A stretch of DNA of 34,364 nt from an uncultured virus (IMG/VR IMGVR_UViG_3300029258_001891) (taxonomy: Duplodnaviria > Heunggongvirae > Uroviricota > Caudoviricetes). The stretch lies in the IMG/VR virus record IMGVR_UViG_3300029258_001891. One strand, given 5' to 3'. Every line of letters starts with the position of its first letter. Positions within the stretch are counted from its first letter, which is position 1. Position numbers and translations under genes: made by a program. Of the stretch, positions 3,089 through 28,710 are shown piece by piece. The notes beneath the pieces were generated by a model. The model searched no databases and had not been told where the DNA came from. It was given only the letters and a program-made list of their open reading frames with translations.

Positions 3089-4201
3089 GTGATGTCGATA
3101 GAGACTGTGATGAACCGCATAAATAAACGCTACGGTAGGGGAACAATCGTCCGTGCCAGCGATGCACTTGGATTGACGATCAAGCGTTTCAGCACAGGGA
3201 GCCATTCCCTTGATATTGCTCTAGGCGGGGGCTTCGTGGAAGGCCGGATAAACGAAGTCATAGGACACTACAGCGCGTATAAAAGCACGCTCGCTATTTG
3301 CGGAGCCACGAAGTTCATCAAGAAAGAGCCTAAGAAGCGGTACGTTGTCTACATCGATGTGGAGAACGCTTTCGATGTGAAGTGGTTGAAGTTCCTCGAC
3401 GCCGATCCGAACAAGTTCCTTCTCGTGTCGCCGACGACAAGCGAACAGTCCGTGGACATCGTTTGCGATGTGTTGGACGAGGGGGATCAAGTCTTGGTGA
3501 TCTTCGATTCCATCGGTGCTATCACACCGCACTTCGAAGTCGAGAAGAAGATGGAGAAAAGCAGTGTCGGGATGCACCCGCGTTTCGTGTCCAAGATGCT
3601 GCGTAAGCTGATTCCGCGATTGAAGAAGGATTTGCTTTCTTCTACGCCGAAATCGACCATCCTTTTGTTGAATCAAGTCCGTGTTCAAATCGGCGTGATG
3701 TTCGGCGATCCTGAAACGGCACCGGGGGGAAAGGCGCTTGAACACGCGGCATCTGTCTGCGTGAAGCTGTACCGCAAAGGCTACATCTATGAGGAAATCA
3801 AGGAAAGCGGGGAGACGTTGAAACAGGCCGTGGGAACAACGGTGGGATTCGTCGTTGTGAAGAACAAGACCGGCGGCAACGCGAACGAACGGGGATTCTT
3901 CAACTTCTACAATCGGGCATATGGATACCGGGAAGGGGGAACCATCGACAATGCGCTTGACCTTCTTCCCATGGCCGTGGTATACGGGATTGTCCGAAAG
4001 AAGGGACACGCCTACTCCTATCAGGGGATCAAGGCCAACGGGAGAGAGAAGTTCTGCAAGAAAATCTACATGGACAAGTACGTCTTGCAGGACTTGTACA
4101 ACGATGTGATGAAGGTACACAAAGGAAAACTCCAACTGAAGCGCACCGGGGATAAAGCGAAAAAGCGGCAGAAGAAGAACAGAAAGGCGTTCGCGCTATG
4201 A
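3089..4201 (+). CDS. recA: RecA/UvsX-family recombinase
   Basis: STGSHSLDIALGGG, P-loop GHYSAYKST, YIDVEN, VIFDSIGA, LLNQVR..IGVMFGDPETAPGGKALEH, VVKNK. Confidence 0.95.
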   Translation: MMSIETVMNRINKRYGRGTIVRASDALGLTIKRFSTGSHSLDIALGGGFVEGRINEVIGHYSAYKSTLAICGATKFIKKEPKKRYVVYIDVENAFDVKWLKFLDADPNKFLLVSPTTSEQSVDIVCDVLDEGDQVLVIFDSIGAITPHFEVEKKMEKSSVGMHPRFVSKMLRKLIPRLKKDLLSSTPKSTILLLNQVRVQIGVMFGDPETAPGGKALEHAASVCVKLYRKGYIYEEIKESGETLKQAVGTTVGFVVVKNKTGGNANERGFFNFYNRAYGYREGGTIDNALDLLPMAVVYGIVRKKGHAYSYQGIKANGREKFCKKIYMDKYVLQDLYNDVMKVHKGKLQLKRTGDKAKKRQKKNRKAFAL

Positions 4202-4515
4202 AGCGGCTGAAATCGGATCAACAAGAGAAACGCTTGGCTGAGAAGTTGAACGGGCGTGTCCAGCCGGGATCGGGATGCGGATGGCGCAACAAAGGGGATG
4301 TGAAAGGTCCGCAGTGGCTTGCGGAATGTAAGAGGACGGACAAGAAACAAATCATCTTGAAGAAGGCTGACATCGAGAAGATCATTGAACGGGCGGCTAA
4401 AGAAGGATTGGAACCGCTCATGGAGATTCAAATTCAAGATGTGAATGTTTATATTTTGACCGAGACAACTTTTGATTTTGTCCGAGATGCGATAGAAAGG
4501 AGACTTAGAGAATGA
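4198..4515 (+). CDS. Holliday junction resolvase-like PD-(D/E)XK nuclease
   Basis: QEKRLA..GRVQPGSG..KGDV..LAECKRT; ATGA overlap with recA. Confidence 0.8.
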   Translation: MKRLKSDQQEKRLAEKLNGRVQPGSGCGWRNKGDVKGPQWLAECKRTDKKQIILKKADIEKIIERAAKEGLEPLMEIQIQDVNVYILTETTFDFVRDAIERRLRE

Positions 4516-4567
4516 AAGAGAGGGTGAGTAAGATACATTGTGGAACAGTGTGGCAAACAGCTTAGGG

Positions 4568-4636
4568 ATTGAGGACATGCGCGTGTATGTCCTGGCGGAA
4601 TCAACGTTCGACTATCACTTTGTGGAGGATGAGTGA
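4568..4636 (+). pseudogene. Relic duplicate 3' end of the upstream resolvase gene
   Basis: Reads IEDMRVYVLAESTFDYHFVEDE*, matching the resolvase segment IQDVNVYILTETTFDF; stop overlaps the next ATG (TGATG). Confidence 0.7.
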
Positions 4637-4851
4637 TGCCTGAGATCGATCTTGAAATTAATGTGCACTTGCGGAAAGGTCCGTCTCTAACTGTTTCCCG
4701 AGACACAACCGGAGAAACCTGGTTCGGGGTAAGCGGAGAAAACCGCCCCATTAATTCAAAAGAAGCGTCTGCGTTGATCGGGGCGTTCGTATTGGCCTTT
4801 GGAGACAAACTCGATGAAGACAAAAGCCTTAATCAGATTAGTGGAGAGTGA
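4636..4851 (+). CDS. Hypothetical protein
   Basis: ORF with GGAGG RBS before ATG 4636. Confidence 0.7.
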   Translation: MPEIDLEINVHLRKGPSLTVSRDTTGETWFGVSGENRPINSKEASALIGAFVLAFGDKLDEDKSLNQISGE

Positions 4852-5044
4852 AGGGGGAAAGTTCCTACGTAGCAAGGGGAGTCACAAGATTTACCGGATG
4901 CCAAACGGCGAGATAGTGAACATCCCTCTCAGTGGCGCGCACACGGAAGCGTCACCGGGAATCGAGCACAAGGCAAAGAGGGCGATAAGGAGAAACCTAC
5001 ATGGCCCGGTACAAGGAGGAAAAGAAAATCCTTCGCGCAGTTAA
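4814..5044 (+). CDS. hicA: HicA-family (dsRBD-fold) mRNA interferase-like protein
   Basis: LIRLVESEGGKFLRSKGSHKIY..NGEIVNIP..H: HicA KGSH signature and typical size. Confidence 0.8.
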   Translation: MKTKALIRLVESEGGKFLRSKGSHKIYRMPNGEIVNIPLSGAHTEASPGIEHKAKRAIRRNLHGPVQGGKENPSRS

Positions 5045-5156
5045 GAAAGTCCACGGGAAGAAGCTGCCTAGGGAATGGTACTTGGAGTTGAAAAGCTGTG
5101 CTTCAAAAGAGGAAGCTTTGGAGAAGTACCGGGCGCTGAGAGGGAAGGAGATTTGA
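5001..5156 (+). CDS. Small hypothetical protein (51 aa, not in ORF track)
   Basis: TAAGGAG RBS, ATG 5001, MARYKEEKKILRAVKK...RGKEI*; abuts next gene. Confidence 0.6.
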   Translation: MARYKEEKKILRAVKKVHGKKLPREWYLELKSCASKEEALEKYRALRGKEI

Positions 5157-5157
5157 G

Positions 5158-5709: not shown

Positions 5710-6286
5710 ATGGGCGGGCGGAAGAGAGAAATCTGGAAGCCCATTCCCGGATGGGAAGGATATGAAGTCTCCGACCAGGGACGTGTGCGTTCTTTTTGGG
5801 CGCGAAAAACAAGAGGGGGCGTGTCGTGGCTTTAGACACTTCATCGGCCAGACGGCCAGGATACGCCCGCACAACATCTCGGAAAACGGAAGACCGATCA
5901 TTACGTTTAGCCTTAGCAACAAGTCGTTCAACTTCAAGGTTTGCCGTCTTGTGCTTCTTGCTTTCGTCGGCCCGTGTCCTGAAGGCATGGAATGCCGTCA
6001 TCTGGACGGGAACCCGGCCAATAACAGGATCGGCAATTTGGTTTGGGGGACTAAGAAAGAAAACATAGCTGACAAAAAGCGGCACGGAACGCATGTTCAA
6101 GGATCGAAGCAAAACGGGGCTAAGTTGAAGGAAAGAGATGTGCGCCGTATCTGTCGATTGTTAGCGCAAGGTGAAGGCCCAACTGAAATCTCTAGGAAGT
6201 TTGGTGTTCATCAAGTTACGATTACAGACATCAAACTTGGTCGATCTTGGGGCTGGCTTACGAAGCAGAGAAAAAGGAGGGCGTAA
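5710..6286 (+). pseudogene. NUMOD4-HNH-HTH homing endonuclease with a +1 frameshift
   Basis: GAGGAGG RBS, ATG 5710, EIWKPIPGWEGYEVSDQGRVRS (NUMOD4) stops at 5833-5835; HNH (RLVLLAFVGP..CRHLDGNPANNRIGNLVWGTKKEN) and C-terminal HTH are in the +1 frame. Confidence 0.85.
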
Positions 6287-7074: not shown

Positions 7075-7539
7075 ATGGCTAGCGCAATGGGGTTTGGTAC
7101 AAGGACGAAGCGGACTTACTACGGACTTTTGCGAACTATCAAAGGAAAAGGCTTCGAATATGAAACTGTCGATCTTGTGACGGCGCACAAGAAAAGAACA
7201 CTTCAGAAGTATATCGACGCCTACGCTCCCGGAACGGAGCATCGCGTGGTCACTACTCGGGCGGCTCATGTGTGGCAAGCGTACCCGGAGATCACCAAGG
7301 CCGTTCGTGTTGGTACGTTTCCAGAATTGAACGAGGAAGAGAAGAAGCTGGTCGATAAACACATTCAGGATGGAATCATTCCTGCCGTCAAGAAGTACCG
7401 TGCCAGAACAGGTCTTGGTTTGAAAGAAGCTAAGGGTCAGATCGACAAATACAGGGAGTCAAAGAAGAATGCTTCGCAACCTGTGGAAAGACGTGAACAA
7501 GATGAAGAAGAGGAAAGTCTCGTTCATCAACGTCATTGA
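7075..7539 (+). CDS. Protein with ribosomal bL12 (L7/L12) C-terminal-like domain
   Basis: IIPAVKKYRARTGLGLKEAKGQID matches the bL12 CTD pattern KI.VIK.VR..TGLGLKEAK..V. Confidence 0.75.
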   Translation: MASAMGFGTRTKRTYYGLLRTIKGKGFEYETVDLVTAHKKRTLQKYIDAYAPGTEHRVVTTRAAHVWQAYPEITKAVRVGTFPELNEEEKKLVDKHIQDGIIPAVKKYRARTGLGLKEAKGQIDKYRESKKNASQPVERREQDEEEESLVHQRH

Positions 7540-8377
7540 TCGCTTCCTTTACGATGAACAGATGGCCCTCATGCGCCGGGAAATAACGGACGTTGACATT
7601 CGGCGTGCCGAAGCAAAGATCGAACTGGCATTGGCCGAACGCAAGTTCAAGCAGTGGAAGGCCGCGAAGAAAGACTACAGGGACAAGTATTATCATCCTT
7701 CCGCTATCGGGGGATGCGCTAGAAGGACTGTCTACAAATCCATGCGCGCACCCAAGAACAAACCTCCGATGGGTGGTATCGCGGACATCGCCAAGTCACA
7801 GCGAATCTTTGCCACGGGCGATTCGCTTCACTTGCGAATGCAAGTCCTCTTCGTCCGAATGGGCCTTTGTACGATAGATGACATCGAAGTTCCCTTCACT
7901 GTCGGCGATGAACAAGGAACCTGTGACGCCATAGTGAGTCTAAAGGGGAAGAAGTACATCGTCGATTTCAAATCCATCAATGACTACGGCTTCAAGAACC
8001 TTGGACGGCATTACGGGAAGGAAGGGTACAAGCAGCAGATTCACATGTACATGAAGCACTTGAAGATTCATCGTGCCGTGTTCATCTACGAGAACAAGAA
8101 CGATCAAACGTTGCGCGAGACGTTTTTCGAGTTCAACAAGAGCGACGAAAGGAAACGGAAGAAGCGTTTGGATTATCTCCGTGACCACGTGGACAACCGG
8201 AAGTTGCCGAAGAGGGAAGGGGAGTCTGTGCACCGTTTTCCTTGCAAGGGATGTTTCTACACCAACATTTGTTGGGATGAGAGAAAGGGAAGGAAATGGT
8301 TAAAAAACGCAAAGGGACGAAAAGCAAAAAGAAAAGGACCATCCTCGAAGAAACGGAGCGCCGCATTCGCGCTGTAG
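7469..8377 (+). CDS. Cas4-like PD-(D/E)XK exonuclease with 4-Cys cluster
   Basis: YHPSAIGGCAR, GDSLH, GTCDAIV, IVDFKS, QIHMYM, CKGCFYTNIC; start may be 7502. Confidence 0.88.
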   Translation: MLRNLWKDVNKMKKRKVSFINVIDRFLYDEQMALMRREITDVDIRRAEAKIELALAERKFKQWKAAKKDYRDKYYHPSAIGGCARRTVYKSMRAPKNKPPMGGIADIAKSQRIFATGDSLHLRMQVLFVRMGLCTIDDIEVPFTVGDEQGTCDAIVSLKGKKYIVDFKSINDYGFKNLGRHYGKEGYKQQIHMYMKHLKIHRAVFIYENKNDQTLRETFFEFNKSDERKRKKRLDYLRDHVDNRKLPKREGESVHRFPCKGCFYTNICWDERKGRKWLKNAKGRKAKRKGPSSKKRSAAFAL

Positions 8378-13307: not shown

Positions 13308-13724
13308 ATGGTCAAGGTAACGAAATTTTTGGGCGAGTTCTCTATCGCCCATAGGTTGATGCGGCACGAAGGGAAGTGTCGTTTCTTGCACGGGCACAAC
13401 TACCGCGTGGAGTTGACGGCCTACGGCAACATAGGCGACAACGGATTTGTGGTGGACTTCGCGGAACTCAAAAAGTTGAAACACGTCGTGGAGAGATGGG
13501 ATCATAAAGTCGTTCTCAAAATAGACGATCCTCTCGCGGGCGTTCTCATTGAGGGCGGCTTCAGGGAACACGTGTTCATAATCCATCAAGACCCTACGGT
13601 TGAAGTGTTGGCGCTTCATTGGTTCGCGGAGATGAAGGAGTGTTTCGAGCATGAATCCGCAAGACTGGACTCCCTTCGCGTTTGGGAAACGAATACATCT
13701 TATGCGGAGGCAAGGAACTCCTAA
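13308..13724 (+). CDS. queD: 6-carboxytetrahydropterin synthase
   Basis: FSIAHRL..GKCRFLHGHNY, VVDF, WDH, PTVE, VWET. Confidence 0.95.
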   Translation: MVKVTKFLGEFSIAHRLMRHEGKCRFLHGHNYRVELTAYGNIGDNGFVVDFAELKKLKHVVERWDHKVVLKIDDPLAGVLIEGGFREHVFIIHQDPTVEVLALHWFAEMKECFEHESARLDSLRVWETNTSYAEARNS

Positions 13725-14466
13725 AGAAATTGGTGTACATGAAATTTATGAGACGATTTCCGGGGAAGGTCCAACAGTTGGCCTTCCTTCTGTTTTTCTG
13801 AGGACTCTTGGATGCAATCGAACATGTAGTTGGTGCGATAGCGGCTACAAACCGGAAAATATCAAACCGAGTCAGGCGGAAACAAAACACCTTTCGTTAT
13901 CTGTCGAGTATGTTATTTCTGTTTTGAAGTCTTTTCCTCTTCACAAGCGCCATGTTGTTTTCACTGGCGGTGAGCCTACTATCTTCCTTCCACAGATTGT
14001 TCAAATCTGCAAAGAGATCGAACCGGCGTTCGGGACTTCAATCGAAACGAACGGGGAACTTCTGGACAAGTGCGATCCGAAACATTTCGTTTGCATTGAC
14101 GCATGGATCATTTCTCCGAAACTCTCTAGCTCCGGTAGGCGCAGTGCGCTTCCTACATTGGTCCGTTATATGACGAATTGCTATTTCAAGTTCGTTGTCG
14201 GCACGGAACAGGACATGAGGGAAGTCGAGGAAATCCTGAAAGAAGAAGTCTTTGTGAGAGAAGTTTTCATCCAACCCGCTGACGGCCATCCAGATGCGAT
14301 AAAGGTGATATTGGAGAGTGGAATCTTTTCCGAAAAAGACAAGGTGTTTTCAAACCAACGTGAAACAAACCAACGTGCTTTTGCCTTTCCGTTCAGCGAC
14401 GATGTGAAAAGGTGTTTGGCCGTCAGGTTTGTCCCACAGGTTCACAAGTTTCTCGGCATGGCATAG
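13702..14466 (+). CDS. queE: 7-carboxy-7-deazaguanine synthase (radical SAM)
   Basis: EIYETISGEG, FLRTLGCNRTCSWCD, VFTGGEP, IETNG, ISPK, PQVHK. Confidence 0.95.
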   Translation: MRRQGTPKEIGVHEIYETISGEGPTVGLPSVFLRTLGCNRTCSWCDSGYKPENIKPSQAETKHLSLSVEYVISVLKSFPLHKRHVVFTGGEPTIFLPQIVQICKEIEPAFGTSIETNGELLDKCDPKHFVCIDAWIISPKLSSSGRRSALPTLVRYMTNCYFKFVVGTEQDMREVEEILKEEVFVREVFIQPADGHPDAIKVILESGIFSEKDKVFSNQRETNQRAFAFPFSDDVKRCLAVRFVPQVHKFLGMA

Positions 14467-17330: not shown

Positions 17331-17660
17331 GTGGCAAAGAAAAAGCTTGTGAAGAAGGCAGTCAAGGAGAAGGAACCGGCCAAGAAGAAAGAGAGTCTTA
17401 CGGCCATCAAGGAAGCCAAGAAAGCCGACGACACCCAGGCGGGTGCTCACATGTACGCCGCTTGCGCGTACTGGCTCAAGGGCAAGTGGACGCCGAAAGG
17501 CGTCCGGTCCAAGCTGGACGAGATGATGGAGTTGTACGAAATCTCGTACAAGGCGAAGATGGCCGCGCAAGCCAGGAAGGACAAGGAGTTGAAGGCTAAG
17601 AAGAAAGGTGGGGGTAAGCACGTTGGCCAGAAAGCGAAGCAAGGTTCTTTCGCGTTTTGA
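17331..17660 (+). CDS. Lys-rich hypothetical protein with FAF C-terminus
   Basis: AAAGGAG RBS; ends QKAKQGSFAF*. Confidence 0.75.
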   Translation: MAKKKLVKKAVKEKEPAKKKESLTAIKEAKKADDTQAGAHMYAACAYWLKGKWTPKGVRSKLDEMMELYEISYKAKMAAQARKDKELKAKKKGGGKHVGQKAKQGSFAF

Positions 17661-18185: not shown

Positions 18186-18599
18186 ATGAAACTTGTTTTC
18201 GAAGGATCGAGTCTGATCGTCACGCGGGAGAAAGGTGATCCTCCAATCAAGGGCGGTTCATGGGGAAGCAAAGAGTCCCAGCTTCTCTACCACATCAAGC
18301 TGTTGCTCAATGCGGGCGATCACGATCTCGTGAAAAAGCGGATGTGGAAAGACGGTCATTTGGTGGCCGACGAGCAGTTGTATCTCCGCACCCGTTCGAA
18401 GAACAGTCACAAGCCGCACGTTTACATCTGGAACAATCGCTACGCGATTGAGGACGCGGGCGAAGAGTACATGAGAGAAGGGAAGGTGTCTCTCGAAGTC
18501 ATGTACGACGTTTTCGAAAAAGGGCAAAGGACCTTGGAAGAGGAAGAAGAGGGAGGAAGAAGAGGAAGGAGAACCCACGGATGCCGAGTGACTCGATAA
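18186..18599 (+). CDS. Hypothetical protein
   Basis: AAAGGA RBS; 137 aa. Confidence 0.7.
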   Translation: MKLVFEGSSLIVTREKGDPPIKGGSWGSKESQLLYHIKLLLNAGDHDLVKKRMWKDGHLVADEQLYLRTRSKNSHKPHVYIWNNRYAIEDAGEEYMREGKVSLEVMYDVFEKGQRTLEEEEEGGRRGRRTHGCRVTR

Positions 18600-19405
18600 A
18601 AGTGAAAAGGTTCTTGCATTTGATGTTGAACATGTCGTTCCTCGAAACGGAGTCCAAGGGGGAACGTGTCTTCGAACGGCAGATCGTCGCGCAAGAGAAC
18701 GGGAAGAAGCTACGTACTCGCGCCTGGGTGCGTATCTATTCCAGCATCAAAGGCGACAAGTTTCGTGGGGAAGGGGAAGACGCGATCCGCGTTGTCGCTG
18801 TCCGGCGGTGGGAGAATCCTGAAGAGGAAGCTCCGTTGGCCAAGACCACTCGGATCAATCGAACGGAGAACTGGGCTGGCGTGCTGAAACGTGTCCGCGA
18901 ACGGGCGAAGGAGATGTGGAAGGCCGGTGTCGCCAGAAGGAAGACGGCTAAGCGTCCTTCGGAGTTGGCGGCGGAAAAGGAAAGGAGAGAGAACGAACCC
19001 GCCACGGCGAAGCAAATCAGGTACTACGAAGACCTGAGCGGAACGGCAGTCGTTGGCAATTATACCAAGAAACAGATGTCCGCGATGATCGACAACGCAC
19101 GGACAAAGAACGGACTGCCGAAGTCCGAACAGAAGAAGATGGGAAAGAGGAGATACAATCGGGTTCCTGGCAACGAGATCACGAAAAGCCAGTTCGGTTA
19201 TCTGGAAGCGTTGACGGGCGTGGACTACCGGAAGACCGCCAAGGAATTGGGTCTTCTTCGCCTCGAAGGCAGTCAGATGATCGACTTGTGCAAGAAGAGG
19301 GAGAGTAAGATCGAAAGAAGAAATGCTCTTCTCGCGTATTTCAAGAAGCACAAGGCCCGGATCGAAGGAGGTAAGAAAGCGCGGCAGTCGTCGTTCGCTT
19401 TCTGA
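18581..19405 (+). CDS. Hypothetical protein with two AT.KQ..Y-type repeats and FAF C-terminus
   Basis: PATAKQIRYYEDL..SAMID and ITKSQFGYLEAL..SQMID; ends KKARQSSFAF*. Confidence 0.8.
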   Translation: MPSDSIKVKRFLHLMLNMSFLETESKGERVFERQIVAQENGKKLRTRAWVRIYSSIKGDKFRGEGEDAIRVVAVRRWENPEEEAPLAKTTRINRTENWAGVLKRVRERAKEMWKAGVARRKTAKRPSELAAEKERRENEPATAKQIRYYEDLSGTAVVGNYTKKQMSAMIDNARTKNGLPKSEQKKMGKRRYNRVPGNEITKSQFGYLEALTGVDYRKTAKELGLLRLEGSQMIDLCKKRESKIERRNALLAYFKKHKARIEGGKKARQSSFAF

Positions 19406-19988: not shown

Positions 19989-20417
19989 ATGAGGCGCAAG
20001 TACAAGACCAAGATGTTCCGCTACACCATGTTGGGAGACTTCTCCAGGACCGGCAACCAAATCCAGAAAACGTTCAAGGTCAAAACAAAGAAGTCTCACT
20101 TCACAATCACGCAGTACAGATCGGGGAGCATATCATGTACTCGGTGCAAGAGCACGATATGCTCTCACATCAAGTTCCTCGTGGACCGGGGGGCGTTTGA
20201 CACATTGGCATACGTCGAATGCCTGGAAAGGAGAAAGCAAGGTGGATATGTACGCCGCACTGGTCCGGCGGCAGAAAAGAATCTTCCGGGTAGGAACCCG
20301 CGTGATCGTGGCAAAGCATCTGGACGAAAAATTTCTGAATCGGGACTTGTACGTGTGCGGAAAGGAGGTAGAAGGAAAGGGCGATTCGAAGCATCTGGTT
20401 TTGCTTTTGGGGATTAA
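19989..20417 (+). CDS. SWIM-like Zn-finger protein
   Basis: ISCTRCKSTICSHIKF; ends GFAFGD*; overlaps next ORF by about 170 nt. Confidence 0.55.
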   Translation: MRRKYKTKMFRYTMLGDFSRTGNQIQKTFKVKTKKSHFTITQYRSGSISCTRCKSTICSHIKFLVDRGAFDTLAYVECLERRKQGGYVRRTGPAAEKNLPGRNPRDRGKASGRKISESGLVRVRKGGRRKGRFEASGFAFGD

Positions 20418-22034: not shown

Positions 22035-22355
22035 ATGGCGAAGAAGAAACGGAAGAAGCGGAAGAAGCCTCGCGGAGAGGACGAAGAGGTTCCCGCGAAG
22101 AAGAAGCGCAAGTACAAGAAGCGCAAGCCCGCCAACGGAAGGAAGAAGGGCAAGCGCGGAAGGAAAGCGAAGGAGGTAGCCGTTGTTGTTTCGTTTACTG
22201 ACGGCGGCAATCACGTCTTCACGACCCCGAAAAGGGCTTTCGAGGATACCGTCAAGAAGGAACTGAGTGGGTACGAACCGGAGAGCGTCAAGGACATCCG
22301 GGCTTTCGGGAACGAGATTCCCGTCCGTATCCGCTACGGCTTCAGCCTCGTTTGA
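22035..22355 (+). CDS. Basic hypothetical protein
   Basis: GAGGAGG RBS; Lys/Arg-rich N-terminal half; ends RYGFSLV*. Confidence 0.75.
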   Translation: MAKKKRKKRKKPRGEDEEVPAKKKRKYKKRKPANGRKKGKRGRKAKEVAVVVSFTDGGNHVFTTPKRAFEDTVKKELSGYEPESVKDIRAFGNEIPVRIRYGFSLV

Positions 22356-22361: not shown

Positions 22362-22400
22362 CGGGAGTGGGGATGTCAAAGTCCCCACTCCCGTTCTTTC
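22362..22400 (+). terminator. Intrinsic terminator
   Basis: CGGGAGTGGGGA/TCCCCACTCCCG perfect 12-bp stem followed by TTCTTTC. Confidence 0.8.
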
Positions 22401-22414
22401 AACCGGAGAGAACT

Positions 22415-23605
22415 ATGACCAACCACGAAAGAAAAATCGTCGAGAACCTGTTGGAGATTGAAAAGGAGGTTAACGAAGTGCTGGCGGAAAGGGAAGACGC
22501 GCTACGTGCCTGCATCTATGCACTCATCCTTCGGATGCACGCATTCATGTTTGGTCCTCCCGGTACGGCGAAGTCTCTTGCCGCGAAACTCCTTTTGGAA
22601 TCCATCGAAGGGGCATCGTACTTTCACAAGCAGCTTACCCGCCAGATGACAGAGGAAGCGGTGTTTGGTCCTCTGAACGTGAAGAAGTGGCGGGAGGAAG
22701 GCGAGTATGAGTACAACATCAGAGGCGGGATGGCCGACTGCCAGCTTGCGCGTCTGGAAGAGTATTTCGACGCAAGCGATGCGTGCATTCGGAGCATGAA
22801 CGAGGTTCTGAACGAACGGGAGTACACCCGTTCAATCGGAAAGCCCGTCCAGTCTCCGTTGCATACCGCGATTGCCACGTCGAATTTCTGGCGTGACAAG
22901 AACGACGCGCAGGCCGTCGCGGATCGTTTCCTGTGCCGGATCAAGGTTCCCGATCTGGAAGAGGGGGCGTCACGCATTAATGTTGTGACGGCGTTCCTCG
23001 AAAACGGATTGCCGGAAGTCGAAGGAACCATTTCATTCGAGGACATCGAAAAGCTGGCCGATCTCCGGGAGACGGTCGAAGTCGATGAGGATGTTGTCGC
23101 GGCTTACGACGAACTCTTCGAACTCTACCGGCAGAGATTGGGGAAGGGCGAGGACATCTCCACTCGGCGGTATGTGTGGTCGGCCATGCTCATCCAGGCA
23201 TCCGCTATCCTGGACGGGCGAACGGAAGCCGAAGCGCAAGACATTCACGCGACCCGCTTCGGACTCTGTTTCATCGGTAACAGCGACCACGAAACGGCTT
23301 TCGAGGAAGTCTATCAGAAAGTCGTCGGCAACATCGAAGAGAAGAGCAAGTCGCGGAAGCAGTTGCAGACGTTCTCCCGTGTTCTCGATAAGGTCGAAGC
23401 GAAGACAAAGACCGGGAGCGCGAACCTTTTGGTGAAGTACCATCAGGAATTGATGACCATCAAGGGCGGCTTCAAGAACAGGAAGGTGCCTGTGAATCCC
23501 GATGCCAGCGTGGAGAAGGGTTTCGCTGAAGTCGAGCAGCGTTGCGCGAAACTTCTGGAAGCCGTCAGCAAGAGAATCAAGCCCGAAGACTTGCCGACTT
23601 TCTGA
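22415..23605 (+). CDS. MoxR/RavA-family AAA+ ATPase
   Basis: FGPPGTAKS, EEAVFGP, LNER, ATSN, AVADRF, ISTRR..ASAILDGR. Confidence 0.92.
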   Translation: MTNHERKIVENLLEIEKEVNEVLAEREDALRACIYALILRMHAFMFGPPGTAKSLAAKLLLESIEGASYFHKQLTRQMTEEAVFGPLNVKKWREEGEYEYNIRGGMADCQLARLEEYFDASDACIRSMNEVLNEREYTRSIGKPVQSPLHTAIATSNFWRDKNDAQAVADRFLCRIKVPDLEEGASRINVVTAFLENGLPEVEGTISFEDIEKLADLRETVEVDEDVVAAYDELFELYRQRLGKGEDISTRRYVWSAMLIQASAILDGRTEAEAQDIHATRFGLCFIGNSDHETAFEEVYQKVVGNIEEKSKSRKQLQTFSRVLDKVEAKTKTGSANLLVKYHQELMTIKGGFKNRKVPVNPDASVEKGFAEVEQRCAKLLEAVSKRIKPEDLPTF

Positions 23606-23618
23606 GAAAGGAGGGGAA

Positions 23619-25196
23619 ATGATCCGGGTATGTTATCATTACCACAAGGAGAAGAGGCTGAAGCGAACGCGGATGCCTGTCCTTGACGACGATGTGAAAA
23701 AGGAACTTCACGCCATCGCACGGAAGTTCCAGATCGACGATGAGGGTTTCGTCCAGGACTTGTACCTCATGCTAAAGTCCACAGGCCGTGCTCTCATGTC
23801 CCGGAAGAACGCCAAGCGCAATGTCAAGCGGATGATGAAAGACGAAGGGTGGACGTGGACTGCCGCGTACAAGCGAATGGCGAAGCACTATTCCTTCTTT
23901 CGGAAGCTGAAACACCTTCCGTACTTTCTGAAGTTGTGCCAAGTCAAGGACACCTACGATGCCGTGGAGAGGTTGTTGGCCATCTTCAAGAAGCTGAGCG
24001 CAAAGACTCAACCCGCGCGGTGCAATGCGTGCAATCACGCGAAGGATTGTGCGTTCGGAAAGCAGTTCAGCAAAGGGCACACGTCGTATCACAACATGCC
24101 GAACACGTTTTCCATTGACCACACCAAGAAGGTGAGCAAGGACTGTAAGGAACCTCCGTCCGCCGTCGATCCTTTGGTTCACGCCGTGATCGCGCTCTCG
24201 ATCCTCACTGTCATTCTCGATCCGATCCAAGGTGCCGCTTTCGCGGAACACATGGAACAGAACGGGGGAGAGAGTGCCACCGTGGAATTGGTCAACATGA
24301 TGATTCCGATGAATCAGGTCGGAAAGGCAACGCCGGAATTCGATGCCACATTCACGGGAGAGTCTTTCGTCAAGCGTCTTGAGCAAATGGTGGACGATGT
24401 TACGTCAAGGCAGCTTGCGATCTTCGAACTGGCAAGAACGTTCAACGAAACTTTATTGCCGGGTGAATCGGAAGAGAAGGAAGACGTGGAGTACATCTCC
24501 CACGATTTCCGCGCGAGGGAGATCAGGACCGTGGAGGAAGTTCCCAAGGCGCTCCCCGGTGAAGTCATTGACGATGACATGATGGACAAGAAGCTGGTCA
24601 CGGGGGAACTCCAAGTCCGGCAGGACATGCAACGGCAAAAGAAGAAGCAGTATTTCCACACCTTGCTGGACGTGTCGGGTTCGATGAACTCCATGATCGC
24701 GCCGAACGTCTACGCCTTGCACACGAAGGGAACTTTCGCTTCCGCGTTGTGCCTGTCCGTCATCAAAAAGATCAGCTTGGAACAGGGAACCATGCTGTTC
24801 CGGTTCTTCGCTGGCCAGCCGGATCGGCTCAAGATCGCGGACGACGACGATTCGATGGCCGATCTCGCGCGCATGGTTGGCATCTCCGATTTCAACGGGG
24901 GTGGAACCGAAATCATGCTCGCCTTGAAAGCGGCTTGTGAAGACATCCGGGAAAAGGAGAAGGAAGGAAAAGGTAAAGCCGAAATCCTTTTGATCTCGGA
25001 TGCCGAGTCATACGTTGACGAGAGCAAACTGGCAGGCATACTGAAAGACGACATTCGGTTGCATGTGTTGGATGTGTCTCCGCAAGGCTACATTGCACAC
25101 GCGGATACGCCACTGCGAAAGCTGGCGGCATCGTACTACAAGGTCGATCCTCAGAGTATCCAGTTTGATGATATTGCGAAAGCCGCGTCAGACTAA
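23619..25196 (+). CDS. VWA-domain protein (ViaA-like AAA+ partner) with Cys cluster
   Basis: MIDAS LLDVSGSM, GGTE, LLISDAE; CNACNHAKDC; AAGGAGG RBS. Confidence 0.9.
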   Translation: MIRVCYHYHKEKRLKRTRMPVLDDDVKKELHAIARKFQIDDEGFVQDLYLMLKSTGRALMSRKNAKRNVKRMMKDEGWTWTAAYKRMAKHYSFFRKLKHLPYFLKLCQVKDTYDAVERLLAIFKKLSAKTQPARCNACNHAKDCAFGKQFSKGHTSYHNMPNTFSIDHTKKVSKDCKEPPSAVDPLVHAVIALSILTVILDPIQGAAFAEHMEQNGGESATVELVNMMIPMNQVGKATPEFDATFTGESFVKRLEQMVDDVTSRQLAIFELARTFNETLLPGESEEKEDVEYISHDFRAREIRTVEEVPKALPGEVIDDDMMDKKLVTGELQVRQDMQRQKKKQYFHTLLDVSGSMNSMIAPNVYALHTKGTFASALCLSVIKKISLEQGTMLFRFFAGQPDRLKIADDDDSMADLARMVGISDFNGGGTEIMLALKAACEDIREKEKEGKGKAEILLISDAESYVDESKLAGILKDDIRLHVLDVSPQGYIAHADTPLRKLAASYYKVDPQSIQFDDIAKAASD

Positions 25197-25337
25197 CGAC
25201 TCAAGAGAGAAGTTTTGCAAGTGACGATAGCGAAGAGGTTCAAGATCACTCAGCCCCCCGTGAGTCAGATAAAGAGGAACCTGACTTGGTGTGACATCCA
25301 GTTCGACCAAGTGGCGGAGGCAAGCGCAGATGCCTAA
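25197..25337 (+). pseudogene. Relic C-terminal HTH of an HNH endonuclease
   Basis: Reads RLKREVLQVTIAKRFKITQPPVSQIKRNLTWCDI..*, similar to EISRKFGVHQVTITDIKLGRSWGWL in the HNH gene at 5710-6286. Confidence 0.55.
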
Positions 25338-25827
25338 GCGCAAACATCAATCAGCATTCGACTTTGGTGGGGGTGAGCACGTTGTTCTGAAAAAGAAAGC
25401 CAAGAAGAAGAACATCAAGAAGAAGACGAAGAAGAAAGTACCGCCTCCCGTGAACCAGCCTGTTGAAGTGGTGAAGGTCATCACGCCGGATGCTGATGCG
25501 TTTGCCGTGCTTGCGTATGTTTTGATCCGTCATTATGTGCATCGCAACTATTCCGTGACCGGAGCGAATATCGATGAAGGTATTTTCTTGAAACAAGTGT
25601 CGGAGAAATTCGGCGCATTGAGAAGGCAAGCCGGTGACAAAGTGTTGTGCGAGACGATACAGTCCGTATTGGACAATCTCGCGTACAGGGAACTCACCGA
25701 CGATCCAGACGCATTGCACGCGGGGTATGAAACGATTCAACTTGAAGGAGCTTTGCGGAGAATGGGCTGGCAACGGATCAAAACAGAAACGCTGCCAAAG
25801 AAAAAGGAGGAAGGCTTTTCCTTCTGA
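25330..25827 (+). CDS. Hypothetical protein with FSF C-terminus
   Basis: GGAGG RBS; ends PKKKEEGFSF*. Confidence 0.75.
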   Translation: MPKRKHQSAFDFGGGEHVVLKKKAKKKNIKKKTKKKVPPPVNQPVEVVKVITPDADAFAVLAYVLIRHYVHRNYSVTGANIDEGIFLKQVSEKFGALRRQAGDKVLCETIQSVLDNLAYRELTDDPDALHAGYETIQLEGALRRMGWQRIKTETLPKKKEEGFSF

Positions 25828-25837
25828 GGAGGTAGAC

Positions 25838-26437
25838 ATGATCCTTGTAATGCTGCGGGGAGACGGGAAGATCGCGTGCTCCCTTGGAGCATTTCACAAC
25901 CAAACATTCAACATCTATACGGCTTGGAGGGCCGCGAACGGAAAGGGTAGTGTGCAATCGGGATCAAACATCAAAGGGGATACCGAGTATGGCACTGTCA
26001 CGGCCATGGGTGAACAGCTTTCTTTCATCGTGGGCGACCGTTACGCCGGAGTGTTCGCCCATGACAGGAAGAAACCCTACATCCACGACGATGACGGTAA
26101 GAAATATCCCATTGATCGATCAACATTCGACGTGACGGCTGGCCGAATGTTGGGCGGGAAAAGCGGGCGGAAAAAACTGTGCATGGGATGGGGATGGGCG
26201 AACAGGTATCCTTACGATTGCGTGAAAGCGCCTATCGCCATTCTTGAGGAATCGGTGTCTATGTTTCCTTCCGCTCACCATGTGTTCCTGTACTTGGCCC
26301 ATCTTCGAATCGTGCAAGACGACGATCCGAAATTCGAATCGCTGGTCGAGAAACTGAACAAGAAGGTGAAGCCGAAGGAGTTCGTGAAATCGGCCAAGCG
26401 AAGGAAACGGAAGAAGGAAGGAGGGTTTTCTTTCTGA
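25838..26437 (+). CDS. Hypothetical protein with FSF C-terminus
   Basis: GAGGAGG RBS; ends KRRKRKKEGGFSF*. Confidence 0.8.
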   Translation: MILVMLRGDGKIACSLGAFHNQTFNIYTAWRAANGKGSVQSGSNIKGDTEYGTVTAMGEQLSFIVGDRYAGVFAHDRKKPYIHDDDGKKYPIDRSTFDVTAGRMLGGKSGRKKLCMGWGWANRYPYDCVKAPIAILEESVSMFPSAHHVFLYLAHLRIVQDDDPKFESLVEKLNKKVKPKEFVKSAKRRKRKKEGGFSF

Positions 26438-26787
26438 TGGTGAAAAAAGAAGAAGGATTGAAATTGATGGCTTCCAAGTTCGATCTCGACGATACGGTAT
26501 ACTTTGTCAAAGAGGTAAGCTGTATCAGAGAGCACCCATGCTCGGAGTGCGGTGAGAGACACTTGATCGCCGATATGAAATACGTGAGTGCGAGAGGAAA
26601 GGTGTTTGAGTTGCGAATCACGCACGCTCTTTTAAGGTACCACGTCACTTACGTTTTGATGGAACGGAACAGGAATCTGCACATCGTCGAGGAAAGAAAC
26701 GTTTTCGGTACAGTGAAGGAAGCCAAGGCAGCGAGGGACAAGGCGAATGCCCAGCTTGCGAAAAGAGTTAAAGGTAAAAGGCTTTGA
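26437..26787 (+). CDS. Hypothetical protein
   Basis: TGATG overlap; KFDLDDTVYF..CSECG. Confidence 0.7.
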   Translation: MVKKEEGLKLMASKFDLDDTVYFVKEVSCIREHPCSECGERHLIADMKYVSARGKVFELRITHALLRYHVTYVLMERNRNLHIVEERNVFGTVKEAKAARDKANAQLAKRVKGKRL

Positions 26788-27103
26788 GGATGTTGGAGTG
26801 ATCGTGTGGTCCAGGGGAGAGAATCGTCTGGCGCATTTCGAACTGGACTTCCGGCACGCTTCGAAGGCCGTGAGGAGAAGGTGGGATAAGCAAAGGAAGA
26901 CTGGAAAAGAACCTCGTGCGTTTACTCACGATGATTTCTCTATTACAGTCTTCGGTACTCCATACGATCTCACCGAACTCATCGAACGGATTTACAAGGC
27001 GCGGCATGTCATCGTCAAAAAAATGGCAAAGGCTATCGATGATGCGATGCCGGAAGAACAAATTGTGAAAAAGAAATCAAAGCAGAAAGGGTTTGCATTT
27101 TGA
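26747..27103 (+). CDS. Hypothetical protein with FAF C-terminus
   Basis: Ends KKKSKQKGFAF*; start uncertain. Confidence 0.7.
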   Translation: MPSLRKELKVKGFEDVGVIVWSRGENRLAHFELDFRHASKAVRRRWDKQRKTGKEPRAFTHDDFSITVFGTPYDLTELIERIYKARHVIVKKMAKAIDDAMPEEQIVKKKSKQKGFAF

Positions 27104-27333
27104 GTGATGAGGTACCTGTGGATACGATTCCTGTGTTTTGTAACCAGTGTGGCTGCAAAGTTGGGCGTATGGAACGAGTGAGACAGCCCGACGGCACGGT
27201 GCCCACAGGAGAATCCCTTCATGTTCCCTGTTGTCCCGCTTGTGACCCGGACGAATGCGCCGATGAAGACGGGCGCATGATGCTCAAGGTGATCGAGTTG
27301 AACGAACAACGGCGGATGTTCCAGTACAACTAA
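27100..27333 (+). CDS. Small Zn-finger protein
   Basis: CNQCG..CPAC. Confidence 0.6.
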   Translation: MSDEVPVDTIPVFCNQCGCKVGRMERVRQPDGTVPTGESLHVPCCPACDPDECADEDGRMMLKVIELNEQRRMFQYN

Positions 27334-27345
27334 GAAAGGAAAGCC

Positions 27346-27699
27346 GTGGACGACGAAACGAAGGAACTGCTACGTGAAACCGCGTCGTGGCTGACGGTAC
27401 TCGCGTTGTGCGAGGAAGAAGATGAAATCGAGACGATGGAACCGATGGTCTGTCGTCGGCTGCACAAACTCGTCGATCTTTTAGAAAAAGGTGTCATCAC
27501 AATAAAAGCGGTAAGTTGGGAAAAGGTCGTGGACAAAGCACGGACGTATTCTTATTTCGATACACAACACCATCCTTTCGGGGTGCACAACAGAATCGCT
27601 ACGATCAAAGCATATCGTGAGTTGACGGGAAACGGTTTGAAGGAGTCAAAGGATGCCGTTCAAGCGGAAGCAAGGCTACGTGGAAACTTTTGGACGTAA
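27346..27699 (+). CDS. Second protein with bL12 C-terminal-like domain
   Basis: NRIATIKAYRELTGNGLKESKDAVQ. Confidence 0.75.
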   Translation: MDDETKELLRETASWLTVLALCEEEDEIETMEPMVCRRLHKLVDLLEKGVITIKAVSWEKVVDKARTYSYFDTQHHPFGVHNRIATIKAYRELTGNGLKESKDAVQAEARLRGNFWT

Positions 27700-27717
27700 G
27701 AAAGGAGCAACGGACAA

Positions 27718-28221
27718 ATGAGCAGCGAATACGATGCCGGTCATGGCTGGAAAGACAAGGACGAGGAAGAATTTGAGAAGGCTTTGAATCTCACGCATGA
27801 AGAGCAGAAGCAGATGCACGAGATCGACAAGCTGATGGGTGATGCGCAGAACAAGTTCACGTTCTTCATGCGCCAGCATCAAGCCGATCCGAAGAAGCCG
27901 AAGGAAATCCAGTTCTCCATGAAGATACGCGAAGCCACACTGGCGCAGTTCATGTGGCTACGGTTCATGGTGATTGAGCCTGGATGGCAAACGTCCGCCC
28001 AAGTCATCGGAAAGATCATTCAGGAAGGAGTCAAAGTCGTTTACGGGATAGAACAAGAGGGTGTCGCGGCTGCGTTCCTGGCAAAGAAGATGCTTTCGCA
28101 GATGCCGCCAGAGTTCGCACGCGCAACGCTCGTCAACTCCATCCGGGCGGGGATCGAACAGCGGAAACGGGTCGAAGAGCAAGGATTGAAGGAGTCAATG
28201 GGTGAGGATACTTCTGGCTGA
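27718..28221 (+). CDS. Hypothetical protein
   Basis: AAAGGAG RBS; 167 aa. Confidence 0.75.
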   Translation: MSSEYDAGHGWKDKDEEEFEKALNLTHEEQKQMHEIDKLMGDAQNKFTFFMRQHQADPKKPKEIQFSMKIREATLAQFMWLRFMVIEPGWQTSAQVIGKIIQEGVKVVYGIEQEGVAAAFLAKKMLSQMPPEFARATLVNSIRAGIEQRKRVEEQGLKESMGEDTSG

Positions 28222-28345
28222 GTTCGTCTACCTTGTCGCGGAGTTCATTCAATTTTGTTCCTGGCTTCTCATCGTCGCTTCAGGTTTCACGGAACTCGTG
28301 GGCCTGTGGATCGAAGAAGGAGAATGGCCCAAGGAGGACGATTGA
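28202..28345 (+). CDS. Small hydrophobic protein (47 aa, not in ORF track)
   Basis: GTG 28202: MRILLAEFVYLVAEFIQFCSWLLIVASGF...EDD*; fills the gap to the next gene. Confidence 0.45.
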   Translation: MRILLAEFVYLVAEFIQFCSWLLIVASGFTELVGLWIEEGEWPKEDD

Positions 28346-28347
28346 CA

Positions 28348-28710
28348 ATGAGCGGCTATGTGATAAGGTCTGTTCGAACAAGAACGATATGGCCCGGCGA
28401 AAAGGAGACAGTACGTGAAGAGGAAGTGTACTTCTTTCAGCGTTTCGTGGGCCGATCAATACTTTGGGTTAAAAACAAGAAACAGCGCGCCGTGTACGCC
28501 AAGAAGGAGCAAGCGGAATATCACCATAAAATTCTCAACAGGTGTGCACAGGATACGTGCGTGAAGCCGAAGCCTGTGCTCACTGTATTGAGAGTGAAGG
28601 GCAAGCCGAACGCGAAGGAGATGACACATGGCCAGAAGGTTCAAACAACTCAGCAACCGCCGAAGAAAAAAGCCGTCATCAAAAGAAAGAAAAGCCCTTT
28701 TGCGTTCTAG
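28348..28710 (+). CDS. Hypothetical protein with FAF C-terminus
   Basis: AAGGAGG RBS, ATG 28348; ends VIKRKKSPFAF*. Confidence 0.75.
   Translation: MSGYVIRSVRTRTIWPGEKETVREEEVYFFQRFVGRSILWVKNKKQRAVYAKKEQAEYHHKILNRCAQDTCVKPKPVLTVLRVKGKPNAKEMTHGQKVQTTQQPPKKKAVIKRKKSPFAF

Follow-up and report, generated by a model that had tools for sequence, protein, structure and literature searches.

Why do eight proteins of an uncultured tailed phage, unrelated to one another and none of them structural, carry the same lysine-rich C-terminal tail, with Phe-x-Phe/Leu at its tip, and what might read it?

A shared tail on eight proteins

The observation of shared tails is confirmed. Re-reading the window, by which we mean the whole 34,364-nucleotide stretch of DNA analysed, returned all eight stops (4201, 8377, 17660, 19405, 25827, 26437, 27103 and 28710), tails and codon sets given in the first-pass annotation (Table 1). 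The last three codons of the eight tails read TTCGCGCTA, TTCGCGCTG, TTCGCGTTT, TTCGCTTTC, TTTTCCTTC, TTTTCTTTC, TTTGCATTT and TTTGCGTTC. The final 30 coding nucleotides are only 50% identical on average in pairwise comparison (70% at most). That excludes a DNA repeat and bears out the annotation's view that conservation lies at the protein level. By codon-usage score the reading frame is the best of six in each of the eight ORFs.

Table 1. Proteins carrying the tail or a variant copy of its motif, and the neighbouring MoxR and VWA genes (window positions).
Protein	Coordinates	Strand	Tail or motif copy	Matches and remarks
RecA/UvsX-like recombinase	3089..4201	+	...KKRQKKNRKAFAL, ends 4198	Pfam RecA 1e-49, phrog_97
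Cas4-like PD-(D/E)XK exonuclease	7469..8377	+	...SSKKRSAAFAL	phrog_1706, phrog_1990
QueE-like radical-SAM enzyme	13651..14466	+	PFAFG, residues 8-12 (nt 13672-13686)	Pfam Radical_SAM
109-aa K-rich protein	17331..17660	+	...QKAKQGSFAF	function unassigned
274-aa orphan protein	18581..19405	+	...KKARQSSFAF	tail modelled on clamp
142-aa protein	19989..20417	+	...EASGFAFGD (stop), near-terminal variant	weak coding score, 0.05 per codon
106-aa protein, polybasic N-terminus	22035..22355	+	...RYGFSLV (stop), variant	directly upstream of MoxR gene
MoxR AAA+ ATPase	22373-23605	+		Pfam bpMoxR 1e-28, AAA_5
VWA protein	23619-25196	+		weak Pfam VWA matches; MIDAS DVSGS...GGT...SD intact, read from translation
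165-aa protein	25330..25827	+	N-terminal QSAFDFG (nt 25348-25368); C-terminal ...KKKEEGFSF	two motif copies
199-aa protein	25838..26437	+	...KRRKRKKEGGFSF	
118-aa protein	26747..27103	+	...KKKSKQKGFAF	
~120-aa protein	28348..28710	+	...IKRKKSPFAF	ORF open from 28255; best coding-score frame
356-aa protein	32505..33575	+	PFAFG, residues 61-65 (nt 32685-32699)	matches C-terminal part of DpdA-type phrog_887

Those tailed proteins with an assigned function all act on DNA, judging by Pfam and PHROG. The AlphaFold2 model of RecA (mean pLDDT 85) has its core above 85 and residues 353-369 below 50, and the tail is accordingly predicted to be a disordered appendage. No Pfam, PHROG or NCBIfam match was found for the 17331..17660 protein, a homologue search with the 18581..19405 protein found only itself, the 25838..26437 protein had no tblastn match in GenBank phages, and tblastn likewise gave none for the 26747..27103 protein. 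A single-sequence fold of the 25330 protein was poor (mean pLDDT 50). The last tailed gene likely starts at 28348, where the ATG has AAGGAGG upstream, or at 28324, and not at 28255.

To set the tails against a full-genome and shuffled background, as the first-pass annotation had proposed, endings of the form F[AS][FL] were counted in all ORFs of at least 50 aa in the whole 76-kb record plus the window. They terminate 8 of the 232 plus-strand ORFs, where 0.16 would be expected from composition (Poisson probability of at least 8, 9e-12), and 0 of the 304 on the minus strand; 2000 rounds of shuffling the last 30 aa of every ORF yielded 0.18 on average and never more than 3. The outside control consisted of 189 further viral loci totalling 3.07 Mb, with many near-duplicates among them; their 12,055 six-frame ORFs include 17 such endings, at most one per locus, compared with 8 of 247 in the window (Fisher p 1.9e-8). 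A looser ending, with at least three K/R before the tip, occurs in 4 of the 12,055 control ORFs and in 9 of the 247 window ORFs, one of these nine, on the minus strand, being taken to be chance. By our own crude gene calls the tails sit on 8/59 genes in the window and 0/46 elsewhere (p 0.008), and across record and window they are confined to non-structural genes. Since the tail is so frequent and uniform here (8/232 against 0.16, with no control locus holding more than one), a common reader seems needed. We did not count the AFAF in PolA, which falls within the 3'-5' exonuclease domain.

Motif context, conservation and variant copies

Beyond the tip itself, the first Phe always follows a small residue, G, A, S or P (8/8 tails, p 1e-5), and K/R average 5.4 (range 3-8) over the 12 residues leading up to the tip, compared with 2.5 for the 97 remaining called genes (Mann-Whitney p 1.8e-4). 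Three of the eight tails have Gln three residues ahead of the first Phe (p 0.002; 0.013 when the linker's composition is taken as background). These Q-x-x-F-x-F copies are QGSFAF, QSSFAF and QKGFAF, joined by QSAFDF at the N-terminus of the 25330 protein.

Five variant copies were found. GFAFGD and YGFSLV stand directly before a stop, the 25330 protein has QSAFDFG near its N-terminus, the 32505 protein has PFAFG within a basic N-terminal region, and QueE has an N-terminal PFAFG. The QueE copy holds only if ATG 13651 is the true start, which has GAAGGAG upstream but implies a 74-nt overlap with QueD. Acidic residues come after the internal copies, as FAFGD (before the stop), FAFGND and FDFGGGE show.

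Two RecA orthologues, P0123 and P0124 (60% and 57% identity), end in a K-rich linker followed by AYSF or SLSF, and RecAs at or below 37% identity have no such tail. Among the 150 Cas4-like representative homologues listed, none carries the F[AS][FL] ending (0/150), and the nearest among the matches listed (49% identity) has a basic tail with no aromatic tip. Whether homologues from other phages lack the tail, a check raised in the first-pass annotation, thus has a mixed answer: distant RecA and Cas4-like proteins do lack it, and so does the closest Cas4-like representative listed. On the evidence of the RecA orthologues the tail is under selection. The core idea of a protein-level docking or address signal fits the conservation in RecA orthologues, the disordered extension and the restriction to non-structural clients; taken as a whole, the earlier interpretation is partly supported.

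Candidate readers of the tail

The reading we favour, tentatively and at a little under an even chance, is that each tail is a short linear motif for docking, of the kind that binds sliding clamps. The consensus would be a flexible polybasic linker followed by [G/A/S/P]-F-[A/S]-[F/L]-COOH, the best copies having in addition a Gln at the third residue upstream of the first Phe. Through such tails a single hydrophobic pocket on a DNA sliding clamp would capture accessory proteins of DNA metabolism, namely RecA, the Cas4-like nuclease, several small uncharacterised proteins and, probably, the enzymes of deazaguanine DNA modification. The host beta clamp is the likeliest candidate for that clamp; failing that, it would be one that the phage encodes in the ~20% of its genome outside the record. 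The two aromatic/aliphatic residues would fill subsite I and the Gln, where present, subsite II; the free carboxylate, or the acidic residue after the motif, would face arginines at the pocket rim, and the lysines would contribute DNA or surface contacts. If this is true, many weak hooks bring recombination, processing and modification enzymes to replicating phage DNA. That all the tails use one clamp site, as well as the biological purpose, we infer.

The first-pass annotation knew of no matching motif. However, excerpts of the review PMC11139829 describe the hexameric beta-clamp motif as Q-phi-x-[L/M]-x-[F/L], with Pol IV QLVLGL and Pol III epsilon QTSMAF as examples, and three tails and the one N-terminal copy fit this shape as Q-x-x-F-x-F. 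A complex model of the E. coli beta clamp with the last 45 aa of the 18581 protein, the most motif-like tail and the one tail modelled, gave ipSAE values of 0.76, 0.76 and 0.75 (best of 3 controls 0.00) with a clamp that is a stand-in and may not be the host's. The score mark that it passed is reached by 51/78 solved complexes and 2/108 mismatched pairs, and where a family has solved complexes a pass may reflect the model's memory. At least 84% of contacts are shared between runs, and the partner's pLDDT is 62 or more. Of the 19 clamp residues at the modelled interface, 13 are among the 18 pocket residues listed in the excerpted PMC11139829; the Gln contacts clamp residues 175, 320 and 364 (subsite II) and the first Phe contacts 172, 174, 175, 177, 242, 247 and 362 (subsite I). 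At the level of modelling only, then, one tail docks in the canonical beta-clamp peptide pocket. Among the hubs suggested earlier (clamp, replication compartment, capsid, protease, AAA+/VWA machine), the clamp is the sole one to gain further support, from this one modelled tail. Against the clamp, Gln stands at position 1 in only 3/8 tails, position 2 is aliphatic in 0/8 and position 4 is Phe in 8/8; the tail flanks are strongly basic and the surroundings of the clamp pocket are positive; the tail is absent from the PolA, DnaB-like helicase, primase and loader that the phage itself encodes; and the 76-kb record, which is 79% complete, showed no gene for a clamp.

It should also be considered that the tails might dock on another phage-encoded reader, a real but minor possibility, with the MoxR AAA+/VWA pair as leading candidate and the polymerase or another replisome protein, as in T7, behind it. 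In the MoxR-VWA version a MIDAS metal would bind the terminal carboxylate, or the Asp/Glu after internal copies, and MoxR would remodel or assemble the clients. AAA+ machines often read terminal tags via adaptors, the MIDAS residues DxSxS...T...D are intact, internal copies have the acidic residues noted above, and eight motif-bearing genes (17331 to 28710) flank the pair on both sides, four of them directly following it. However, the proximity of genes is by itself weak evidence, the genes for RecA and the nuclease are 14-19 kb distant from the pair, and 31 other viral loci with a distant MoxR have 0 or 1 tail per locus. T7 does dock tail-bearing proteins on its polymerase, but T7-type tails are acidic and those here basic. 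Dispensing with a protein reader altogether, the polybasic stretch (3-8 K/R within 12 residues before the tip) and two aromatics could be a generic anchor to an anionic surface: the cytoplasmic membrane, which would then house a membrane-bound replication factory; DNA or ssDNA, with lysines making contacts and aromatics stacking; or the phage's giant poly-Glu proteins in a charge-driven condensate. Basic-aromatic peptides are known membrane and nucleic-acid binders, many other phage proteins have polybasic ends, and two have acidic tracts of ~100 residues. We nevertheless judge such an anchor unlikely, as it leaves unexplained the F-x-[F/L] spacing, the small residue before it (8/8, p 1e-5), the chain-end position and the recurrent Gln; a membrane anchor is further disfavoured because just two hydrophobics preceded by G, S or P would not fold into an amphipathic helix of the sort that bacterial membrane-targeting sequences typically form.

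Were the tail instead a C-terminal degron, or a ligand for a protease or PDZ domain (hydrophobic-x-hydrophobic-COOH behind basic residues), it would allow timed removal of early proteins by a host AAA+ or tail-specific protease. The pattern does resemble class II PDZ ligands and basic-then-hydrophobic ClpX tags, the non-polar tip is exposed on a disordered end, and the clients are all non-structural. Yet N-terminal and internal F-x-F-G copies could not be read as free C-termini, instability of RecA, nuclease and modification enzymes alike is hard to rationalise, and the 76-kb phage record yielded neither a PDZ domain nor a protease family, leaving this reading quite improbable. Finally, the tails might be chance, or a nucleotide signal at gene ends (such as a ribosome-binding site and spacer that serve translational coupling). 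The E-E-G and E-G-G codons in two tails do coincide with GGAGG, the next gene's ribosome-binding site, and those of E-G-G in the 25838 protein double as that site. Against this stand tip codons that differ among the eight tails, downstream contexts that vary (overlapping starts, 10-30 nt gaps, or no adjacent gene), an enrichment far beyond chance, orthologues that keep the tip with other residues, and the existence of N-terminal copies, and an artefact is therefore very unlikely, to the point of being nearly negligible.

Comparison with known docking systems

Several known systems resemble what clamp-type docking would look like here. The SSB C-terminal tip and the T7 gp2.5 and gp4 tails are acidic, flexible and Phe-tipped, and as in this phage a flexible charged, aromatic-ended tail serves as a shared docking handle in replication and recombination. 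They differ in being acidic and not basic, and with SSB it is the hub that bears the tail and the clients that have pockets, whereas here the clients bear the tail.

T4 gp43, gp55 and gp33 carry interchangeable C-terminal clamp-binding epitopes on unstructured linkers, according to excerpts of PMC2988020. There too several unrelated phage proteins share one hydrophobic ending on an unstructured, variable linker. In those excerpts, however, the epitopes are hydrophobic and acidic and are read by the self-encoded gp45, whereas the present tails are basic and the 79%-complete record has no clamp gene. In phage Mu, as excerpts of PMC12867686 relate, MuC carries a motif for the host clamp at each terminus. 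On that account terminal motifs of MuC and the Mor/C family engage the host clamp with no clamp of their own, and the 25330 protein likewise has a copy at each end; the Mu motifs, though, are near-consensus (QHDLF, QPDLF) and belong to one transcription-factor family, not to at least eight unrelated proteins.

Turning to the beta-clamp motifs themselves, the excerpts of PMC11139829 give only Leu or Met at position 4 of natural E. coli motifs, with Phe weakening inhibitor peptides. The phage tails have Phe in place of Leu/Met at that position, no aliphatic position 2, no Gln in five of the eight, and basic flanks where those of E. coli clamp motifs are mostly negative; their clients include RecA and uncharacterised proteins, and not the phage polymerase. 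The same excerpts name QTSMAF as the weakest natural member, place clamp motifs C-terminally, N-terminally or internally, and have the C-terminal carboxylate contact Arg152. In common with these motifs, the phage tails are short linear motifs on a disordered end, with two hydrophobics one residue apart, a Gln three upstream in 3/8 tails and one N-terminal copy, and a free carboxylate right after the motif, and in both cases many unrelated DNA enzymes would converge on one pocket, in which one phage tail has been modelled.

Tails and the genome that carries them

The eight open reading frames (ORFs) that the first-pass annotation credited with a shared lysine-rich C-terminus tipped F-[AS]-[FL]-COOH are all present in the window, with stops at 4201, 8377, 17660, 19405, 25827, 26437, 27103 and 28710, and each lies in the frame with the best codon-usage score among the six. 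The start of the last tailed gene is probably 28348, not 28255. The codons of the tips are exactly those reported and differ among the tails, which are not a DNA repeat (mean pairwise identity 50% over the last 30 nt).

The tails are real and strongly non-random. Enrichment over background, on which the first-pass annotation made its proposal depend, is marked: of the 232 plus-strand ORFs reaching 50 aa or more, 8 carry the F[AS][FL] ending, against 0.16 predicted from composition, and 2000 trials of shuffling the last 30 residues of each ORF gave a mean of 0.18 such endings and a maximum of 3. None of the 304 minus-strand ORFs has the ending. Among 189 other viral loci (3.07 Mb), many of them mutually similar, it was found on 17 of 12,055 six-frame ORFs and never more than once per locus, as compared with 8 of 247 in the window (Fisher p 1.9e-8). 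Counted by gene, on our own gene calls, strict tails occur on 8/59 in the window and 0/46 elsewhere in the parent virus record (p 0.008), and none is carried by a core replisome protein. The residue preceding the first Phe is small in all eight tails, K, R, G, S and P abound in the linkers, and the 12 residues before the tip hold on average 5.4 K/R, as against 2.5 in other genes.

With the pattern widened to [GASP]-F-[ASD]-[FL] before a Gly or at the chain end, the window has five more copies besides the eight tails. These five, all noted earlier, are the near-terminal GFAFGD* and YGFSLV*, a copy in the basic N-terminal region of the protein starting at 32505, one at the QueE N-terminus (provided that translation starts from the ATG at 13651), and one at the N-terminus of the protein starting at 25330, which with its C-terminal tail therefore has a copy at each end. 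One extended-pattern copy in a structural protein was taken as chance. The AFAF of PolA, inside the exonuclease domain, was left uncounted.

The window (34,364 nt) covers the non-structural half of the genome of an uncultured, siphovirus-like phage, and nearly all genes are on the plus strand. It matches the reverse strand of bases 1-34020 of a 76,077-bp virus record (3 mismatches; completeness 79% by CheckV) and overhangs the record by 344 nt; this stretch, 34021-34364, enters a new ORF. Window 12373-33602 is also found, with 2 mismatches, on a metagenome contig of 92.7 kb, which by its coordinates should run ~16.3 kb past the window end. Sequence beyond the window was not found in IMG/VR. 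Outside the window the record carries terminase, portal, capsid and tail genes, then an SF2 helicase, a DnaC-like loader, a DnaB-like helicase and a primase.

Genes of the window identified with Pfam and PHROGs
Feature	Window coordinates	Strand	Source
PolA	776-2683		Pfam/PHROGs
RecA/UvsX	3089-4201	+	Pfam/PHROGs
Hjc-like resolvase	4198-4515		Pfam/PHROGs
HNH endonuclease	5762-6286		Pfam/PHROGs
Cas4-like exonuclease	7469-8377	+	Pfam/PHROGs
Full 7-deazaguanine set (QueF-like, two QueC, FolE, QueD, QueE)	10021-14466		Pfam/PHROGs
MoxR AAA+ ATPase and VWA protein	22373-25196	+	Pfam/PHROGs
DpdA-like transglycosylase	29579-30862		Pfam/PHROGs
SNase-like nuclease	31844-32281		Pfam/PHROGs

Several other features of this genome deserve record. 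A separate 356-aa protein at 32505-33575 matches only the C-terminal part of phrog_887, the PHROG to which the DpdA-like transglycosylase also belongs, so DpdA may be split or two-part. The terminase large subunit (926 aa; L002:15192-17969 of the record, minus strand, outside the window) contains an intein with a LAGLIDADG homing-endonuclease domain (Intein_splicing 5.7e-8, LAGLIDADG_3 6.5e-10). Acidic tracts of ~100 residues, almost pure Glu/Asp, stand beside polylysine ends in two proteins with no homology to each other, one at window 20605-21951 and the other at L001:3-965 (minus strand), ending at window 24 between primase and PolA; polybasic low-complexity stretches start or end many other proteins of the phage. 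A guess that the second of these poly-Glu proteins is a gp32-like SSB was dropped, as neither PHROGs nor PDB sequences gave a match for it. Two proteins without an assigned function, at window 7075-7539 and 27346-27699, have weak matches to the C-terminal domain of ribosomal L7/L12, which fall short of the curated cut-offs in both Pfam (4.8e-4 and 1.5e-5) and NCBIfam (6.6e-4 and 2.7e-5), and a small ORF at 4799-5044, between the resolvase and HNH genes, has a weak HicA-toxin-like Pfam match (3.5e-5, below cut-off).

Conservation of the tip

The first-pass annotation had made the presence or absence of the tail in homologues a point to check, and the outcome is divided: RecA orthologues at 57-60% identity keep the tip, RecAs at 37% identity or less have other endings, and the listed Cas4-like representatives are without it. 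The two RecA orthologues, from a large protein collection, have a K-rich linker and then AYSF (P0123, 60% identity) or SLSF (P0124, 57%) at the end, with linkers of different length and unconserved sequence. On this comparison the RecA tip (hydrophobic-[A/S]-[F/L] at the chain end) and a basic linker have been kept while the linker sequence drifted, which is the behaviour of a short linear motif; judged by their sequences, the tail is conserved in the orthologues that could be examined. The Cas4-like result tempers the case for the tail being selected: none of the 150 homologues among the representatives listed ends in the motif, and in the closest of them (49% identity) the tail is basic but lacks the aromatic tip. 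Several more distant Cas4-like phage nucleases (P0247, P0249, P0250, P0254, P0257, P0260, P0261) also have basic tails, in which a different pattern, approximately [AS]-[LI]-R-x-F-[VA], stands a few residues short of the terminus; this may be another docking code in other phages.

Relatives close enough to be informative were scarce. For RecA relatives at 57-60% identity and MoxR relatives at 44-48%, nothing but protein records from short contigs exists, and no such tails (0 or 1 per locus) are seen in 31 viral loci that have a distant MoxR. Neither a DNA search of GenBank phages nor tblastn of four tailed proteins, function-less by annotation, against the same phages gave a match. Scans of IMG/VR with RecA, MoxR and alignments of MoxR, RecA and Cas4 recovered nothing beyond self-like contigs and distant loci of at most 36% identity, the JGI metagenome scan only the self-like 92.7-kb contig, and the GTDB genome scans no match. 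For the 274-aa tailed orphan starting at 18581 no homologue was found except itself, with a weak DUF3072 lead in an Atlas look-up (score 0.75). NCBIfam added nothing for the tailed proteins, and a single-sequence fold of the 25330 protein was poor (mean pLDDT 50).

Candidate readers of the tail

The tails are most likely a docking motif, and on present modelling the sliding clamp would be the best candidate reader. As described in the review PMC11139829, natural beta-clamp-binding motifs (CBMs) take the forms Q-phi-x-[L/M]-[F/L] and Q-phi-x-[L/M]-x-[F/L], as in QLVLGL of Pol IV and the weak QTSMAF of Pol III epsilon, and are placed at C-termini, at N-termini (Hda) or internally. Three tails (QGSFAF, QSSFAF, QKGFAF) and the N-terminal QSAFDF of the 25330 protein have the hexameric shape. 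Counting positions from the Gln, position 1 is Gln in 3/8 C-terminal tails and in that N-terminal copy, the other tails having R, S, E, E and K; the same source describes the Gln as important, not essential (PMC11139829). Position 2 is aliphatic in none of the eight (K, A, G, S, E, G, K, S), a position that according to that text tolerates substitution and at which QTSMAF is also off-rule (PMC11139829). Position 4, Leu or Met in natural motifs, is Phe in 8/8 and Tyr and Leu in the RecA orthologues; Phe there is reported to give weaker inhibition by E. coli peptides (PMC11139829). The final Phe or Leu is present throughout (F 6/8, L 2/8). A motif lying in a disordered terminus or loop was seen on RecA, the only protein modelled with an alignment, where an AlphaFold2 model from 68 aligned sequences (mean pLDDT 85) has a well-folded core and residues 353-369 below 50.

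With the E. coli clamp as a stand-in for that of the phage's host, we modelled the C-terminal 45 residues of the 18581 protein, whose tail (QSSFAF) is the most motif-like; PMC11139829 describes a conserved pocket, so that ligands are common to the clamps of different organisms. Three runs scored 0.76, 0.76 and 0.75, with 0.00 for the best of 3 controls, a mark also reached by 51/78 solved complexes and 2/108 mismatched pairs. At least 84% of contacts agree between runs, and partner pLDDT is at least 62. The peptide is predicted in the canonical pocket: of the 19 clamp residues at the interface, 13 are among the 18 assigned to subsites I and II in PMC11139829, with the Gln set against clamp residues 175, 320 and 364 and the first Phe against 172, 174, 175, 177, 242, 247 and 362. 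As for the terminus itself, the C-terminal carboxylate of Pol IV is described in the same review as touching clamp Arg152 (PMC11139829). The model supports clamp binding and does not show it: to the model this tail looks like a clamp ligand, and since many clamp-peptide complexes have been solved, the pass may reflect learnt likeness.

No clamp gene came to light: neither a six-frame search of the 76-kb record nor Pfam scans of its ORFs gave a match to DNA_pol3_beta or DNA_PPF; as the record is only 79% complete, a phage clamp may lie in the missing part. A 273-aa protein between helicase and primase was rejected as a clamp because it resembles a PD-(D/E)XK nuclease, and a check of a 339-aa protein of no known function found nothing. 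As clues to the host, tRNA genes were sought and none found, and cellular RecA matches are scattered across phyla. We put clamp-type docking a little short of an even chance, because five of eight tails have no Gln, position 2 is never aliphatic, position 4 is Phe and the flanks are basic (those of E. coli CBMs are mostly acidic and the pocket rim positive, according to PMC11139829), and because the phage polymerase is itself tailless and the modelling covered just the tail nearest to the motif.

Other explanations must be weighed against this one. It is unlikely, though not strikingly so, that the tails serve another reader encoded by the phage, for which the leading candidate would be the MoxR-VWA pair, central among the tailed genes; MoxR is a bpMoxR/AAA_5 ATPase, and the adjacent VWA protein (525 aa, the first ~340 residues matching nothing) has an intact MIDAS site. 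Taken to its specific form, a phage-private address code read by this AAA+/VWA machine with no clamp involved, the idea is very unlikely. The MIDAS site would then grip the terminal carboxylate beside two aromatic residues, and the ATPase would load, assemble or recycle a dozen clients, including RecA, nuclease, deazaguanine-modification enzymes and small orphan proteins; the place might be a charge-driven compartment made of the phage's poly-Glu and poly-Lys proteins. Quite unlikely, too, is a generic basic-aromatic anchor to membrane, DNA or those poly-Glu proteins, which accounts neither for the fixed spacing and terminal position nor for the Gln and the small residue ahead of the tip.

The eight tails, with a free hydrophobic-x-hydrophobic-COOH, do fit a class II PDZ ligand or degron, yet we regard this as a long shot: the five further copies, N-terminal, internal or near-terminal, are not exactly at a chain end, and Pfam scans of the phage record detected no PDZ domain or protease family. 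That the endings are chance or a nucleotide signal is extremely improbable. Two tails (25816-25840 and 26417-26440) do overlap the ribosome-binding site of the next gene, their Glu/Gly codons before the F-S-F tip doubling as its GGAGG, and one of the two stops overlaps the next start (TGATG). The Glu/Gly residues in these two are under dual constraint; however, codons and contexts differ among the tails.

Significance and known systems

If the tails do hook onto a clamp, no fewer than eight unrelated proteins, and perhaps twelve, including a RecA and probably DNA-hypermodification enzymes, would have been rewired onto the sliding clamp via a non-canonical basic Phe-x-Phe motif. Searches for clamp clients, now biased to Q-L-x-L-F, would gain a wider sequence space, six orphan proteins would be marked as replication-fork players, and the phage would be a tractable system in which recombination and deazaguanine modification are coupled to the fork. 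Should the reader be another, the tail would be ready-made bait for finding a phage or host hub. Either way, it gives a testable way into proteins otherwise lacking annotation.

The principle of terminal clamp-binding epitopes is established. In T4, gp43, gp55 and gp33 have interchangeable C-terminal clamp epitopes on unstructured linkers, as described in PMC2988020, and MuC of phage Mu is described as engaging the host clamp through two motifs, one N-terminal and one C-terminal (PMC12867686). We found no report of a basic F-x-F tail common to many phage proteins in the open-access literature searched. In the T4 type the reader is a phage-encoded gp45/PCNA-like clamp, whereas none was found in the 79%-complete record here, and the epitopes are hydrophobic and acidic, whereas the present tails are basic. 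Tails of the SSB-Ct/T7 type share the aromatic tip and differ in being acidic. With no clamp gene in view, what sets the present variant apart is its basic linker ending in Phe-x-Phe/Leu, carried by eight or more unrelated proteins, a RecA among them.
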